Notes under the pieces: model-generated
What the model was told of the DNA's origin: nothing
The model's database searches: none
The model's input: the letters and a program-made list of their open reading frames with translations, nothing else
Shown: piece after piece, positions 3,765 through 37,951 of the stretch
How positions within the stretch are numbered: position 1 is the first letter of the stretch
Layout: each line of letters begins with the position of its first letter
Translations under genes and position numbers: made by a program
Source: Escherichia phage wV7
Reading direction: 5' to 3' (one strand)
Sequence record: NC_019505.1
Length of the DNA: 64,000 nucleotides

Positions 3765-3825
3765 GTATAGTACCATAGAAGAACAGGGATGTAAACAGTT
3801 TTGTGAAAAAATTTTTAAAAAGTTT
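3765..3825 (-). promoter_or_regulatory. T4 early-type promoter (A/T-rich UP region, -35 GTTTAC, -10 TACTAT)
   Basis: Minus-strand reading: AAAATTTTTTCACAAAACTGTTTAC-N18-TACTAT upstream of the 3460..3723 gene; same architecture repeated at 7195-7252 and 7530-7590. Confidence 0.5.
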
Positions 3826-3928
3826 TGGGGAATTCTAGGGCAGGGAGGGGAAATCAAAGGATAGGATAATATATTATAAAGGGTAGAAACTAAATGATGT
3901 CTAGAGAGGCCTGGAAAGGCCTAGATAC

Positions 3929-3958
3929 CAAAAAGCCCCAACCTTTCGGCTAGGGCTA
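3929..3958 (-). terminator. rho-independent terminator-like hairpin with U-run (minus strand)
   Basis: GC-rich imperfect stem (GCCCCAACC/GGCTAGGGC) followed on minus strand by UUUUU. Confidence 0.45.
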
Positions 3959-3964
3959 AGAATG

Positions 3965-4438
3965 TTATTTGATTTGTTTAGCAGACCAAATGCGGTCTTT
4001 AATAATTTTTTGGATGTCTTCAACATACTCAAGAGAGTGAGCATGTGGATTATCTTTGAAACTATAAGCACGAGCTAGTTTTTGGCCTTCAGTTTTGATT
4101 ACTAAAAGCTCTTTAAGGATAGCTTCATATTTGGAGATAATTCCTTTAACAATATTTTTCTCTTGTGCGACTTTAGGATCTGCTTTAGGAGCAGGTTTAC
4201 CCGAAGCCTTTGCAAAAGCAGCGCCAGTAGCAACTAAACTTTTCCAGGCCATACTAACTGCATTTCCCGTAAATCCTTCCGCTTTCATGTCGCGTGCGAA
4301 CTGGAATCGCGATTCATCAGAAGCATCTTTATAAGAATATTTACCCGCTGCAATGGCTGCTTTTGCGACAGCTTGAATTTCGGTGCTAGATGCTTCATTT
4401 AACACCGCTTCATTTAAAAATTGAGTATATGATTTCAT
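3965..4438 (-). CDS. internal-protein-like head protein with capsid-targeting N-terminus
   Basis: N-terminus MKSYTQFLNEA resembles the T4 IPI/IPII/IPIII/Alt capsid targeting sequence, with L-x-E motifs typical of gp21 protease sites; preceded by a late promoter and flanked by hairpin terminators. Confidence 0.55.
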   Translation of the reverse strand: MKSYTQFLNEAVLNEASSTEIQAVAKAAIAAGKYSYKDASDESRFQFARDMKAEGFTGNAVSMAWKSLVATGAAFAKASGKPAPKADPKVAQEKNIVKGIISKYEAILKELLVIKTEGQKLARAYSFKDNPHAHSLEYVEDIQKIIKDRIWSAKQIK

Positions 4439-4478: not shown

Positions 4479-4486
4479 TATTTATA
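4479..4486 (-). promoter_or_regulatory. T4 late promoter -10 element TATAAATA (minus strand)
   Basis: Exact TATAAATA about 40 nt upstream of ATG at 4438. Confidence 0.5.
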
Positions 4487-4520
4487 CCAAAAAGCCCCAA
4501 CCTTTCGGTCGGGGCTAAGC
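4487..4520 (-). terminator. rho-independent terminator (minus strand)
   Basis: Stem GCCCCGACC/GGTTGGGGC followed by UUUUU on minus-strand RNA. Confidence 0.5.
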
Positions 4521-5176: not shown

Positions 5177-5194
5177 ATTTTCCTCACTTATAAT

Positions 5195-5270
5195 TGGTCG
5201 AGGCAGTAGGGATCGAACCTACGACCTAGGACTTAGAAGGTCCTTGCTCTTCCTTCTGAGCTATGCCCCG
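5195..5270 (-). tRNA. tRNA-Arg (anticodon UCU)
   Basis: Hand-folded cloverleaf: acceptor CGGGGCA/TGCCTCG, anticodon loop CUUCUAA, T-loop TTCGATC, CCA encoded. Confidence 0.85.
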
Positions 5271-5274
5271 TAAT

Positions 5275-5350
5275 TGGGGTGACCGATGGGAGTCGAACCC
5301 ATGACTACGAGAATCACAATCTCGAGTTCTACCAACTGAACTACGGTCAC
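5275..5350 (-). tRNA. tRNA-His (anticodon GUG)
   Basis: Cloverleaf: acceptor GTGACCG/CGGTCAC, discriminator C, anticodon loop TTGTGAT, T-loop TTCGACT, CCA encoded; no G-1 encoded. Confidence 0.75.
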
Positions 5351-5464
5351 ATTAATACCTACTCCAACAATCAAGATGTCTTCACACGAAATTAAGAGAA
5401 GAGTGATCAGTTCAACCCCTATAATCGCGTCAAGTAGATATTAATGTGACAGTTGTCACAAATT

Positions 5465-5539
5465 TGGCGGACGTGATAGGATTCGAACCTATAACCAATC
5501 GCTTAACAGGCGATCGCTCTGCCATTGAGCTACACATCC
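5465..5539 (-). tRNA. tRNA-Asn (anticodon GUU)
   Basis: Cloverleaf: acceptor GGATGTG/CACGTCC, D-stem GCTC/GAGC, anticodon stem ATCGC/GCGAT with loop CTGTTAA, T-loop TTCGAAT, CCA encoded. Confidence 0.8.
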
Positions 5540-5543
5540 AAAT

Positions 5544-5630
5544 TGGTGGGGAGTGGTGGAGTCGAACCACCCGAGTCGCAATGACAATGAATTTACAGTC
5601 CACACCGCTACCTCTACGGGATAACTCCCC
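5544..5630 (-). tRNA. tRNA-Tyr (anticodon GUA), class II long variable arm
   Basis: 87 nt; acceptor GGGGAGT/ACTCCCC; anticodon loop CUGUAAA as in bacterial tRNA-Tyr; variable-arm hairpin; D-arm could not be resolved cleanly by hand. Confidence 0.6.
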
Positions 5631-5642
5631 TAATTCATAATT

Positions 5643-5717
5643 TGGTGGCCCTGGGTGGAATTGAACCACCATCTGGCGATTATGAGTCGCTTGCTTGAAC
5701 CTTCCAGCTACAGGGCC
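5643..5717 (-). tRNA. tRNA with CAU anticodon (Met, or Ile if lysidine-modified)
   Basis: Cloverleaf: acceptor GGCCCTG/CAGGGCC, anticodon loop CTCATAA, T-loop TTCAATT, CCA encoded; occupies the position of the T4 tRNA-Ile gene. Confidence 0.75.
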
Positions 5718-5718
5718 T

Positions 5719-5794
5719 TGGTGCTGATTGACGGAATCGAACCGCCGACCTTCTCATTACAAGTGAGTTGCTCTACCTACTGAGCTAAATCAGC
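5719..5794 (-). tRNA. tRNA-Thr (anticodon UGU)
   Basis: Cloverleaf: acceptor GCTGATT/AATCAGC, anticodon loop CTTGTAA, T-loop TTCGATT, CCA encoded. Confidence 0.8.
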
Positions 5795-5799
5795 AAAAC

Positions 5800-5889
5800 T
5801 GGCGGAGGTGATAGGATTCGAACCTATGAATCGCCGGAGCGACTGCCGGTTTTCAAGACCGGTGCATTCAACCACTCTGCCACACCTCC
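5800..5889 (-). tRNA. tRNA-Ser (anticodon UGA), class II
   Basis: 90 nt; acceptor GGAGGTG/CACCTCC, anticodon stem CCGGT/ACCGG with loop CTTGAAA, long variable arm, T-loop TTCGAAT. Confidence 0.8.
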
Positions 5890-5891
5890 AG

Positions 5892-5965
5892 TCTCCATAC
5901 AAGGATTTGAACCTTGGACCTCCTGATCCCAAATCAGGCGCTCTACCAAACTGAGCTACACGGAG
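5892..5965 (-). tRNA. tRNA-Pro (anticodon UGG), 3' CCA not encoded
   Basis: Acceptor CTCCGTG/TATGGAG, anticodon stem CCTGA/TCAGG with loop TTTGGGA, T-loop TTCAAAT; 3' end abuts tRNA-Ser 5' end with CU instead of CCA. Confidence 0.8.
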
Positions 5966-5975
5966 TAAATTAAAT

Positions 5976-6049
<74 letters not shown>

Positions 6050-6054
6050 AAATT

Positions 6055-6141
6055 TGGTGCGAGAAGTGGGACTCGAACCCACAAGGAAATCATTCCGCAG
6101 CATTTTAAGTGCTGTGCCTTTACCAATTTGACCATTCTCGC
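6055..6141 (-). tRNA. tRNA-Leu (anticodon UAA), class II
   Basis: 87 nt; acceptor GCGAGAA/TTCTCGC, anticodon stem CAGCA/TGCTG with loop CTTAAAA, long variable arm, T-loop TTCGAGT. Confidence 0.8.
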
Positions 6142-6142
6142 G

Positions 6143-6215
6143 CTGGGAATAAAGGACTCGAACCTTTGCATCTAGCAGTCAAAGTGCTATGCCTTACCAA
6201 CTTGGCTAATTCCCA
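6143..6215 (-). tRNA. tRNA-Gln (anticodon UUG), 3' CCA not encoded
   Basis: Acceptor TGGGAAT/ATTCCCA, anticodon stem TAGCA/TGCTA with loop CTTTGAC, T-loop TTCGAGT; one nucleotide separates it from tRNA-Leu (dimeric precursor arrangement). Confidence 0.8.
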
Positions 6216-6312
6216 ATTATTAACAAAGGCTCTCAAGCAAGAACCCTTGATGATAGAGGGTATTAATCAGTGCGGTATGAGTTAATAATAACAAATAATT
6301 CTTAAAGCATAT

Positions 6313-6984: not shown

Positions 6985-7170
6985 TTACTCACCTTTAGAA
7001 ATTTTATCCATAACGATAGCAATTAAACCAATTAAAAATGCTACTACAAGTGAAAATACATTTTCTGCTGTAGTTAATAATCCGCATATAAATCCAACAA
7101 ACATTGAAAAACTAAAAGCGGAAGCAGAAATTGCAATAGCAACATTTCGAATTAATTCACAGCGTTTCAT
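6985..7170 (-). CDS. hypothetical small membrane protein (61 aa, two hydrophobic helices)
   Basis: Track start is TTG inside the promoter; ATG at 7168-7170 (MKRCELIRN...) preceded by GAGGAG; early promoter immediately upstream. Confidence 0.45.
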   Translation of the reverse strand: MKRCELIRNVAIAISASAFSFSMFVGFICGLLTTAENVFSLVVAFLIGLIAIVMDKISKGE

Positions 7171-7194
7171 TTTATTCTCCTCAGTAGTTGATAG

Positions 7195-7252
7195 GGTAAT
7201 AGTATCACTACTAAAACCCCGTGTAAACAACTTTGTGAAATTATTTTAAATC
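7195..7252 (-). promoter_or_regulatory. T4 early-type promoter (-35 GTTTAC, -10 TACTAT)
   Basis: Minus-strand GATTTAAAATAATTTCACAAAGTTGTTTAC-N18-TACTAT; 32 nt core identical to the copy at 7553-7584. Confidence 0.5.
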
Positions 7253-7498
7253 TTCTAATCGTTTCTTCATCTTAGAACCATTTTTAGCGATTTCTCCTGC
7301 GTCAGAGCATAATGCTAAAAGTGCTTTAACTTTAGTTTGGTCTCCTTTAAAAGACGAAGGATCGACTGCAGCAGCAAGTTCTTTAATACGAGAGAAAAGA
7401 CGCTCAGCTTCAGCTAAAGCCATTCCAAGCTTTACTTCCATACCATGAGAAGATTCAGTGATAATAGTTTCTGTAGCAAACTCTTTATAAGTTTTCAT
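7241..7498 (-). CDS. internal protein I-like head protein (capsid-targeting N-terminus)
   Basis: N-terminus MKTYKEFATETIITE resembles the T4 internal-protein CTS (MKTYQEF...), with I-x-E motif; 85 aa; positioned where ipI lies in T4 (downstream of 57B). Confidence 0.6.
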   Translation of the reverse strand: MKTYKEFATETIITESSHGMEVKLGMALAEAERLFSRIKELAAAVDPSSFKGDQTKVKALLALCSDAGEIAKNGSKMKKRLEDLK

Positions 7499-7529
7499 TT
7501 TATTTTCCTAAATTAATAAATGTGTTGAT

Positions 7530-8272
<743 letters not shown>

Positions 8273-8273
<1 letters not shown>

Positions 8274-8998
8274 TATAGTACCTTTAGTGTATTTTTAATT
8301 TTAGAAAAAAGTTCTTCAAGAGAACCATCGTTTGTAATTACTAAATCACCATCACGAATTGGCAATCCAGCTTCTGTAATATGTGTATCATTGGATTTTT
8401 GACCAGGACGAACTACATGAATTACTGTAGCACCCATCGCCCTAGCCGCATCCATTTCATGATCTTGACGAGTATCAGGAACGATATAATAATCATAACC
8501 TGAGTTAAATTTATCAAGATAATCTAAAGCAAATAATTTTACCCAGTACATGCGGTCGAAGTTATTAACAATCAAATCCGTACCTAGGGCTTGCATCAGA
8601 CGACGGACTGACCATTGATCTTCAATATTATTTATAACGTCAATAATCTTGTTAAATGCTACGGAATTAACTGATTCTTTTCCTTCGTCATCAAAAACAA
8701 ACACACCTTTAATTGGGCTTTTACCATTAAGATAGCAAAATGCTTGTTCCATAATTGTGATTACTTCTAATTTAGTCAGATTTAAATTAGTCTCACGATC
8801 ATAGTCAATTCCTTCAAACTCTTTACGAGTTAAGCAAGGATAGTCAGTGTTTGCTGCAAATACTCCCCATGCATAAGCCAATGCATCCTTAATAGGACCA
8901 GCAAGTTGGTATTTAACTGCAGAATAATTGCTCATGATAAAATCAGCAGTAGTATCTTTTCCACTACGCTTTACACCGCTTAAAAAGATTAGTTTCAT
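8273..8998 (-). CDS. 1: deoxynucleoside monophosphate kinase (gp1)
   Basis: ATG at 8996-8998 gives 241 aa MKLIFLSGVKRSGKDT... with Walker-A-like GVKRSGKDT; track start upstream is TTG. Confidence 0.9.
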
Positions 8999-35811: not shown

Positions 35812-35812
<1 letters not shown>

Positions 35813-36048
35813 TGGAAGGTTTAATTGAAGCTATTAAATCAAACGACCTCGTAGCCGCTCGTAAATTATTTGCTGAAGCCATGGCTGCAAGAACGACTGA
35901 TTTAATCAAAGAAGAAAAAATCACTATCGCTCGTAATTTCTTAATCGAGGGTGAAGAACCTGATGACGAGGATGACGACGAAGATAGCGATGATGATAAA
36001 GACGACAAAAAAGACAAAGACTCTGATGAAGACGAGGATGATGAATAA
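35812..36048 (+). CDS. 67: gp67 prohead core protein
   Basis: 78 aa with highly acidic C-terminus ([15 protein letters not shown]...), TAATG overlap with gene 20. Confidence 0.85.
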
Positions 36049-36473
36049 TGATTCTAATCCCTGAAACTCATGAATTAGTTCTCGAGAATGTCGAAGCACT
36101 TATTCCTGAAGCACAGGGTCGCTTTGACGAGTTGTCTTCTGCTTTAAATAAAGACGATATAAATAAAATTATCGAGAATATGCTTGATGATGAAACTGAT
36201 TTAGCGGTTGCATTAGCTTCTATTAATGAAAATATGCCGTTAAATGAATTTATCGTTAAACATGTTTCTGCCCGTGGTGAAATTACTCGCACTAAAGATC
36301 GCAAAACCCGCGAACGTAATGCATTTCAAACTACCGGGTTGTCTAAAGCAAAACGTAGACAAATTGCTCGTAAAGCTACCAAAACGAAGATTGCCAATCC
36401 AGCAGGTCAATCTCGTGCTCAGCGTAAGCGTAAAAAAGCTCTTAAACGCCGTAAAGCATTAGGATTAAGCTAA
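36048..36473 (+). CDS. 68: gp68 prohead core protein
   Basis: 141 aa with basic C-terminus, T4 order. Confidence 0.85.
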
Positions 36474-37111
36474 TGAATGAACCCCAATTGCTAATTGAAA
36501 CTTGGGGTCAACCTGGCGAAATTATTGATGGTGTGCCAATGCTTGAATCCCATGATGGGAAAGACTTAGGTTTAAAACCTGGTTTATACATCGAAGGAAT
36601 ATTCATGCAAGCAGAAGTCGTCAATAGAAATAAACGTCTTTATCCAAAACGTATATTAGAAAAAGCGGTAAAAGACTATATTAATGAGCAAGTTTTAACT
36701 AAACAAGCTCTCGGAGAATTAAATCATCCTCCACGCGCTAATGTTGACCCGATGCAAGCCGCTATCATTATAGAAGATATGTGGTGGAAAGGAAATGACG
36801 TATACGGACGAGCTCGTGTTATTGAAGGTGACCATGGTCCTGGAGATAAATTAGCAGCTAATATTCGTGCCGGATGGATTCCAGGAGTTTCTTCTCGTGG
36901 ATTAGGTTCATTGACTGACACAAATAAAGGTTATCGTATCGTAAACGAAGGATTCAAATTAACTGTAGGTGTTGATGCAGTATGGGGTCCAAGTGCTCCA
37001 GATGCATGGGTAACTCCTAAGGAAATTACAGAATCACAGACGGCGGAAGCCGATACAAGTGCCGATGACGCCTATATGGCTCTCGCAGAGGCCATGAAAA
37101 AAGCGTTATAA
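36473..37111 (+). CDS. 21: gp21 prohead core scaffold protein and maturation protease
   Basis: 212 aa, T4 length and order. Confidence 0.9.
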   Translation: MNEPQLLIETWGQPGEIIDGVPMLESHDGKDLGLKPGLYIEGIFMQAEVVNRNKRLYPKRILEKAVKDYINEQVLTKQALGELNHPPRANVDPMQAAIIIEDMWWKGNDVYGRARVIEGDHGPGDKLAANIRAGWIPGVSSRGLGSLTDTNKGYRIVNEGFKLTVGVDAVWGPSAPDAWVTPKEITESQTAEADTSADDAYMALAEAMKKAL

Positions 37112-37113
37112 AT
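37106..37113 (+). promoter_or_regulatory. late promoter TATAAATA
   Basis: Exact match 28 nt upstream of gene 22 ATG. Confidence 0.5.
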
Positions 37114-37141
37114 ATTATTATCTAAACAACAGGACTACAAA

Positions 37142-37951
37142 ATGCTTAAAGAACAACTGATTGCCGAAGCGCAGAAAATTGATGCTTCCGTTGCTCTTGA
37201 TAGTATTTTCGAATCAGTTAATATTTCTCCGGAAGCAAAAGAAACTTTCGGCACTGTATTCGAAGCTACCGTCAAGCAGCACGCCGTTAAATTAGCTGAA
37301 TCTCATATCGCTAAAATTGCTGAAAAAGCAGAAGAAGAAGTAGAAAAAAATAAAGAAGAAGCAGAAGAAAAAGCTGAGAAGAAAATCGCTGAGCAAGCTT
37401 CTAAATTCCTTGACCATCTTGCAAAAGAATGGCTCACTGAAAATAAATTAGCAGTAGATAAAGGTATCAAAGCCGAACTGTTTGAATCCATGCTTGGTGG
37501 ATTGAAAGAGCTCTTCGTTGAACACAACGTTGTTGTTCCAGAAGAATCAGTTGATGTTGTAGCTGAAATGGAAGAAGAACTGCAAGAACATAAAGAAGAA
37601 TCAGCTCGTCTGTTCGAAGAACTCAATAAGCGTGACGCATATATCAATTATGTGCAGCGTGAAGTGGCATTGAGCGAAAGTACTAAAGATCTGACTGAGT
37701 CTCAAAAAGAAAAAGTCTCTGCTCTGGTCGAAGGTATTGATTATTCAGATGCATTCTCAAGCAAATTGAGTGCCATCGTAGAAATGGTGAAGAAATCTAA
37801 TAAAGATGAAAGCACTATTACTGAGAGTATAAATACTCCTGATACTGAAGCAGCCGGACTGAATTTCGTCACTGAAGCTGTAGAAGATAAATCTGCACAA
37901 GGTGCAGAAGATATTGTAAGTGTATATGCGAAAGTCGCATCTCGTTTCTAA
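37142..37951 (+). CDS. 22: gp22 prohead core scaffold protein
   Basis: 269 aa, acidic coiled-coil, T4 order. Confidence 0.9.
   Translation: MLKEQLIAEAQKIDASVALDSIFESVNISPEAKETFGTVFEATVKQHAVKLAESHIAKIAEKAEEEVEKNKEEAEEKAEKKIAEQASKFLDHLAKEWLTENKLAVDKGIKAELFESMLGGLKELFVEHNVVVPEESVDVVAEMEEELQEHKEESARLFEELNKRDAYINYVQREVALSESTKDLTESQKEKVSALVEGIDYSDAFSSKLSAIVEMVKKSNKDESTITESINTPDTEAAGLNFVTEAVEDKSAQGAEDIVSVYAKVASRF
37828..37835 (+). promoter_or_regulatory. late promoter TATAAATA inside 3' end of gene 22 (candidate P23)
   Basis: Exact TATAAATA about 135 nt upstream of gene 23 ATG, within gene 22 coding sequence. Confidence 0.4.

Follow-up and report, generated by a model that had tools for sequence, protein, structure and literature searches.

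The ip5 gene of Escherichia phage wV7 lies in a repeat-bounded early-promoter cassette and may encode an injected anti-defence protein

The window analysed here is a stretch of 64,000 nucleotides from Escherichia phage wV7 (NC_019505.1). On its minus strand, an ORF of 85 codons plus a stop runs from ATG to TAA, with AGGA as the ribosome-binding site ahead of it, and its product in the ORF list is MKTYKEFATETIITESSHGMEVKLGMALAEAERLFSRIKELAAAVDPSSFKGDQTKVKALLALCSDAGEIAKNGSKMKKRLEDLK. A profile search matched residues 1-85 of 85 to PHROG 3499, "internal head protein" (E=3.7e-50), and the protein is present in 495 phage records. Because of the full-length match and this wide distribution, the ORF is a real gene, as the original prediction held, and its conservation rules out a chance ORF. 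Over the 2-kb stretch around the gene, the DNA of wV7 shows 100% identity with E. coli O157 typing phage 7 (KP869105); identity with RB51, RB68, Ac3 and others is 98%. In RB51 the gene is annotated as [quoted passage not shown] The ip5 label is also present in the T2 and fHoEco02 annotations, and protein identity to the T2 and RB70 Ip5 is 95-96%. We have almost no doubt that the ORF is Ip5. The gene is thus already known: it has a name, it is annotated in hundreds of genomes, and both it and the architecture of its locus have been on record since the 1990s (for the original naming we relied on GenBank annotation notes and later papers). The body of the protein, which could not be recognised from the letters alone, proves to be this named and widely annotated family, so the gene itself holds nothing new.

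The gene lies between 57B and trna.4, the position of ipI in T4, as had been proposed from its placement downstream of 57B. On the minus strand of wV7, gene 2, gene 3, gene 1, 57A and 57B lie upstream of ip5 and are followed, after ip5, by trna.4, trna.3, trna.2 and the tRNA cluster. This is the T4 order, with ip5 occupying the place of ipI. The product of 57B is a full-length match to Pfam Acb1, an anti-CBASS nuclease (cyclic-nucleotide phosphodiesterase), and the slot of the internal protein (IP) gene therefore adjoins a known anti-defence gene. In most records 57B is called "RNA ligase" or hypothetical despite the Acb1 match. Coordinates of these and other features are collected in Table 1.

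Table 1. Features of the ip5 locus and of other parts of the wV7 window (positions are those of the whole 64,000-nucleotide stretch)
Feature	Coordinates	Strand	Evidence
ip5 coding sequence, Ip5 internal head protein precursor	7241..7498	-	ORF list; PHROG 3499; RB51/T2 annotation
Capsid-targeting propeptide, codons 1-15, MKTYKEFATETIITE	7454..7498	-	Tyr4/Phe7, I13-x-E15; predicted gp21 site I-T-E/S (cut after E)
Predicted mature Ip5*, codons 16-85, all-helical domain	7244..7453	-	ProtParam and AlphaFold2
57B, directly upstream of ip5	7576..8031	-	Pfam PF23474 Acb1, E=2.6e-60; synteny with T4 and RB51
trna.4, small membrane protein gene, directly downstream of ip5	6985..7170	-	PHROG 1692; near-identical to T4 trna.4; RB51/T4 annotation
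ip5 T4-early-type (sigma-70-like) promoter	7534..7562	-	TTTACA, 17-nt spacer, TG, TATTAT
trna.4 early promoter	7227..7199	-	Consensus scan; TTTACA-17-TACTAT
Hairpin over the ip5 -10 element, 9-bp stem (AUGAUGGAG/CUCCAUCAA region)	7526..7553	-	RNA fold, z=-2.0 against shuffles
Direct repeat, upstream copy	7534..7591		57B last codons (DLK, stop) and ip5 promoter
Direct repeat, downstream copy	7199..7256		ip5 last codons (DLK, stop) and trna.4 early promoter
Nearest upstream T4 late-promoter box, TATAAATA, inside gene 1	8629..8636	-	Pattern search
CTS-like 157-aa ORF, MKSYTQFLNEAVLNE...	3965..4438	-	PHROG 2280 (unknown function)
gp21 prohead protease	36473-37111	+	Pfam Peptidase_S77, E=1.5e-111
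gp22 scaffold	37142-37951	+	Pfam T4_CASP, E=3.1e-90

The promoter of ip5 has 10 of 12 consensus matches and an extended -10 TG, and its -35 element falls within a conserved motif, ATTTCACAAAGTTGTTTACA, which occurs three times in the 64-kb window against an expectation of zero. Together, motif and promoter form part of a direct repeat that brackets the gene. Each copy contains the final four codons of the gene before it (D-L-K-stop in both 57B and ip5), the motif and an early promoter; the two copies are 58 nt long and 86% identical, share an exact 33-nt core and are spaced 335 nt apart. Homology with T4 breaks at the repeats and resumes exactly at the downstream copy. The ip5 gene sits in a 335-bp cassette bounded by 58-nt promoter-bearing direct repeats. 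When the segments around the two promoters were compared (7164-7245 and 7499-7580, minus strand), a hairpin was predicted in the same place over the -10 element of the trna.4 promoter, also with z=-2.0; its stem is GGGGU..UAGUA/UACUA..ACCCU as opposed to AUGAUGGAG/CUCCAUCA at ip5. At the promoters that bound the cassette, structure appears to be conserved while the sequence of the stem is not.

This arrangement resembles the PeSL cassettes of T4-type phages, in which a small ORF lies between repeats made of an early promoter and a hairpin (Arbiol et al., 2010; Comeau et al., 2014), and at ip5, too, the repeats mark the boundaries of insertion or deletion between close relatives. The promoter and stem-loop elements at T-even IP loci have been described as analogues of PeSLs and not as homologues, with T4 early promoters and weaker, AT-rich stems (PMC2839356), and the elements flanking ip5 match the description of T-even IP loci by Arbiol et al. 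(PMC2839356, PMC4122927). The pattern TATAAATA of T4 late boxes was found 23 times in the 64-kb window against 9.2 expected, and this search placed no late promoter directly upstream of ip5, so late synthesis of ip5 would need read-through. The box inside gene 1 is a candidate source of such late read-through over 57A, 57B and ip5.

To survey the slot between 57B and trna.4 in relatives, we searched with both flanks joined and inspected individual records. In slur04 there is no gene in the slot, only one copy of the motif; the slot holds ipI in T4, ip5 in wV7 and RB51, ip5 and ip7 in T2, and ip5 and ip6 in fHoEco02. It is thus hypervariable, with zero to two IP genes in the relatives, in line with the original expectation for the ipI locus. 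Repoila and co-workers are said to have recognised the hypervariability of the T-even IP locus by 1994. One of its commonest occupants is ip5: of roughly 580 records with a match to the slot flanks, about 267 have it. As the slot is empty in slur04, ip5 is dispensable, which is expected of an accessory gene of host range.

The relationship of Ip5 to T4 IPI ends with the N-terminus. BLASTP aligned the two proteins over residues 1-22 only, profile-profile comparison (hhalign) over residues 1-9 only, and IPI belongs to PHROG 4363, as opposed to PHROG 3499 for Ip5. At the DNA level, wV7 and T4 are near-identical through the end of 57B and the promoter region downstream of it, and again from the trna.4 promoter on; between those flanks the alignment is limited to the ribosome-binding site and the first ~25 coding nt, and the DNA of the gene body could not be aligned. 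Full-length orthology to T4 IPI, for which the original prediction had suggested an alignment, is therefore absent, and the divergent body that it described is real: there is no homology beyond the targeting sequence, which rules out Ip5 as an orthologue of IPI. In several respects the two are alike. T4 IPI (Ip1), an injected inhibitor of a GmrSD enzyme of E. coli CT596, occupies the same slot with promoter-bearing flanks, has the same type of capsid-targeting N-terminus (CTS) and an I-T-E site, and differs little in length (95 compared with 85 aa) and mature pI (9.0 compared with 9.2). A target is known for IPI only.

The N-terminus of Ip5, MKTYKEF, places an aromatic residue, Tyr4, and Phe7 at the targeting positions of the T4 CTS, and its counterpart in IPI is MKTFKEF. 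In T4 IPIII, targeting depends mainly on residues 4 and 7 and processing on residues 8 and 10, and the cut follows L/I-x-E (PMC9026906). By this rule the predicted gp21 site of Ip5 is I13-T14-E15, inside the span of 10-19 residues of known IP propeptides; A8-T9-E10 is a second, weaker site. The capsid-targeting-like start and I-x-E site of the original prediction thus both stand. The equivalent site in T4 IPI is I17-T18-E19, where a cut yields the 76-residue IPI*, a size that is known (PMC3012670). In Ip5, AlphaFold2 confidence is low over the propeptide (mean pLDDT 56-58). The machinery on which the CTS depends is encoded in the same 64-kb window, as gp21, gp22 and gp67 (Pfam Peptidase_S77, T4_CASP and GP67 at 35812-37951). 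By analogy with the T4 proteins, Ip5 is very probably an internal protein that is packaged and processed. Our literature searches for Ip5 returned no proteomic report, and the queries otherwise drew papers on inositol phosphates; Petrov 2010 does not deal with IPs.

A cut after Glu15 would leave 70 aa of 7.5 kDa and pI 9.2 (ProtParam), with 13 K+R against 10 D+E. The AlphaFold2 model, computed from a shallow alignment of seven sequences, has a mean pLDDT of 85 and values >90 for residues ~20-85, with helices predicted at 4-44, 54-63 and 67-84 and no strands. The residues invariant in the family are K23, L24, G25, A27, E30, A31, L34, R37, I38, E40, L41, A42, K56, L61, E69, A71, K78, R80 and L81, and those from K23 to A42 gather on helix 1. 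Foldseek with this model found nothing below E=7 in the PDB, and in BFVD only a member of the family itself, from phage VR26. As a helical bundle of generic type that brought up no informative structural neighbour, the predicted fold gives no hint of a target. IPI* is a compact protein with two beta-sheets and N- and C-terminal helices alongside (PMC3012670). Since it was solved as alpha/beta and Ip5 is predicted to be all-helical, the two probably do not share a structure.

In the tblastn survey, 267 of the 495 records carry Ip5 at an identity of at least 80%, always in Tequatrovirus-type genomes, and another 228 carry a form at about 51%. An exhaustive HMMER search of 1.84 billion cluster representatives found three 50%-identity clusters only, that of T2 Ip5 and two of 94-aa paralogs; a word-indexed homologue search had found five near-identical clusters only, to which HMMER added the two paralog clusters. 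With only these clusters recovered by HMMER, the family is confined to T-even-type phages. Searches of Pfam, NCBIfam and PDB sequences gave no significant match to Ip5.

The Ip5 (IpV) proteins of T2, T6, RB15, RB70 and RB51 (PHROG 3499) represent the same gene as that of wV7, in a length class of 80-85 aa, and the T2/RB51-type genes share its position next to 57B and its flanking repeats. The wV7 protein differs from the named Ip5 in allelic changes only, clustered in the propeptide (Y4F, E10K and I12T) and joined by M26I. The propeptide of one allele, P0004, is 10 residues long and retains I-T-E at its end, with SSHG next. At the second IP locus, which lies between denV and the lysozyme gene e, the ~51% form occurs as a paralog, as in UFV13 (YP_009290394; RB69ORF127c is another according to the RB51 note). 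It also belongs to PHROG 3499 (E=1.2e-46 for UFV13) and shares with Ip5 the helix-1 motif KLGxAL.EAE.L..RI.ELA and an EIAKNGS motif. It differs in its locus, in a C-terminal extension of 8-10 residues, in a near-neutral pI (6.6 for the mature UFV13 protein) and in its own CTS variant, with an L-N-E site in place of I-T-E. A CTS and an [LI]-x-E site are kept in every member of the family, including paralogs at about 40-50% identity. Their persistence in paralogs of ~40% identity at a different locus indicates selection on the CTS peptide. At the e-denV IP locus of UFV13 (3767-4019 of the extracted piece), adjacent ORFs of 42 and 50 aa beside denV are both labelled "internal head protein"; the pair resembles a single IP gene broken in two by a frameshift or by mis-annotation.

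Taken together, we propose that ip5 is an interchangeable IP cassette whose product would be packaged, cleaved, injected and active against host defence, and we put the probability of this reading at roughly 0.6. The gene identity, targeting and cleavage motifs, cassette structure, lack of IPI homology and predicted helical fold come from the analyses above, and the T4 IPs serve as the analogy for packaging, cleavage, injection, anti-defence activity and target class. In the proposed scheme, ip5 would be transcribed early from its own T4-type promoter, and late probably by read-through from the gene 1 late promoter. The CTS, through Tyr4 and Phe7, would steer the precursor of 85 aa to the prohead and into its gp22 scaffolding core, where gp21 would cut after Glu15 (between I-T-E and S); the product, a basic three-helix protein of 70 aa, would remain inside the head alongside the DNA. 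Injected with the DNA, mature Ip5 would be on hand before any phage gene is expressed, and could bind and neutralise a "first-response" defence of the host. The likeliest target would be a GmrSD-like nuclease, Type IV and modification-dependent, whose subtype differs from those met by Ip1, Ip2 and Ip3. Recombination between the flanking promoter-bearing repeats may account for the gain, loss and exchange of the cassette.

An anti-defence role of Ip5 is probable by analogy with T4. It is suggested by four observations: Ip1, Ip2 and Ip3 inhibit GmrSDs, IPIII is active in the host cytoplasm even without its CTS (PMC9391042), Acb1 is encoded next door and the slot can be empty. The functional analogy to the T4 IPs is fairly strong. 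IPI (Ip1) of T4, Ip2 and Ip3 each inhibit a distinct GmrSD Type IV restriction enzyme without cross-protection, and for Ip2 and Ip3 the specificity is strictly one inhibitor to one enzyme (PMC12373910). Like Ip5, the Ip2 and Ip3 proteins, injected inhibitors of GmrSD-ECOR21 and GmrSD-ECOR17, belong to the class of CTS-bearing, capsid-packaged accessory proteins; unlike Ip5, they come from the IP locus near e/denV, and their sequences are unrelated to that of Ip5. The suggestion in the original prediction that Ip5 may differ from IPI in specificity is plausible and fits these published data. That the target of Ip5 itself falls within the GmrSD family is a tentative extension of the analogy, at less than even odds.

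The test against GmrSD that had been suggested for this gene has in effect been published: when ip4-10 were expressed against a panel of active GmrSD variants, none of these enzymes was reproducibly inhibited (PMC12373910, Supplementary Fig. 9). In addition, T2 and T6 are restricted by GmrSD-ECOR21 and GmrSD-ECOR17 (PMC12373910). T2 carries ip5 in the record that we inspected, and T6 does so according to the RB51 annotation note only. Since T2 carries ip5 and is yet restricted by both enzymes, Ip5 does not block either of them, and it is no substitute for Ip2 or Ip3, the genes of which T2 lacks. The target of Ip5 may thus lie in a GmrSD subtype that the panel did not sample, or in a defence of a different type. 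We hold it possible, again at less than even odds, that Ip5 is an injected inhibitor of a defence outside the tested GmrSD variants, be it an unsampled Type IV clade or another immediate-early immunity. A narrower alternative keeps injection and anti-defence activity and places the target outside GmrSD and Type IV altogether, in another nuclease class, an abortive-infection sensor or the exclusion system of a competing phage. The published panel and the sensitivity of T2 to two GmrSD systems both speak for it, as do the predicted fold, which is unrelated to that of IPI*, and the ~51% paralog at the e-denV IP locus in many further T-even-type records. However, all three IPs with known targets act on GmrSD enzymes, a family of great diversity from which the published panel took only about 15 cluster representatives, 8 of them active (PMC12373910). 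The negative panel is therefore weak evidence, and we regard a target outside Type IV as rather unlikely.

There are two further alternatives. Ip5 could be mainly a structural, charge-neutralising head protein associated with the DNA and with no specific host target, and the small size and basic composition of its mature form, together with the roughly 1000 IP molecules that sit within the DNA of a T4 head (PMC3012670), would suit that role. Its basicity, however, is not conserved in the family, as the near-neutral UFV13 paralog demonstrates; no particular IP is needed for packaging, given a slot that is empty in slur04 and filled by unrelated proteins elsewhere; and the invariant residues form a specific helix-1 pattern and not a general basic composition. 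We consider a mainly structural role improbable, and a pure DNA-neutralising protein is rejected on the basicity of the paralog and the emptiable slot. Ip5 could also be an ordinary early protein of the cytoplasm that is never packaged, its N-terminus being a recombination relic of the cassette junction. The sole promoter directly upstream is indeed of the early type, and the first ~25 coding nt and the ribosome-binding region are common to cassettes, as seen in a second direct repeat and in the T4 alignment. Against this, the CTS and [LI]-x-E site persist in the ~40% paralogs at a different locus, and T4 ipI, which is proven to be packaged, has the same promoter arrangement. An unpackaged Ip5 is thus the least credible of these readings and would come as a considerable surprise.

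If Ip5 is indeed injected against a defence outside the tested GmrSD variants, the frequent presence of ip5 in the ipI slot would point to a widespread and unrecognised barrier in E. coli, Shigella and Yersinia. Targets are known for 3 of the roughly ten or more named T-even IPs, all of them GmrSD enzymes, and the common Ip5 is an orphan after the first screen. Its target would either extend the picture of a GmrSD arms race or expose a different first-line defence, and could aid the prediction of host range for therapeutic T4-like phages.

The original prediction had counted ip5 as a second IP-like gene. Within the window, the strict start MKT[YF].EF occurs in the ip5 ORF only, and the looser CTS-like 157-aa ORF (Table 1) is probably the one counted as the first. 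That ORF begins with MKSYTQFLNEAVLNEASS, which is CTS-like and has an L-N-E site, and lies between e.8 and the tRNA cluster, outside both classical IP loci. It corresponds to RB32ORF132c/RB51ORF140, and T4 has no gene here. Direct repeats of 36 nt, 92% identical and each with a GC-rich hairpin, flank it at 3925-3960 and 4484-4519, and a TATAAATA late box lies about 40 nt upstream, at 4479-4486. The ORF had no Pfam match; it is a candidate for a packaged protein at a third locus.

The make-up of the tRNA cluster (~5190-6290, minus strand) changes from one close relative to the next. For typing phage 7, 11 tRNAs are annotated, His, Asn, Tyr and Pro included, and its cluster contains no homing endonuclease; the cluster of RB51 encloses a homing-endonuclease ORF, and segB and the small RNAs rnaC and rnaD are found in that of T4. 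The typing phage 7 record (KP869105, 78000-81019) also gives the name "Endoribonuclease RegB" to each of several small ORFs upstream of the window that are unrelated to one another, evidently through an error of annotation propagation.
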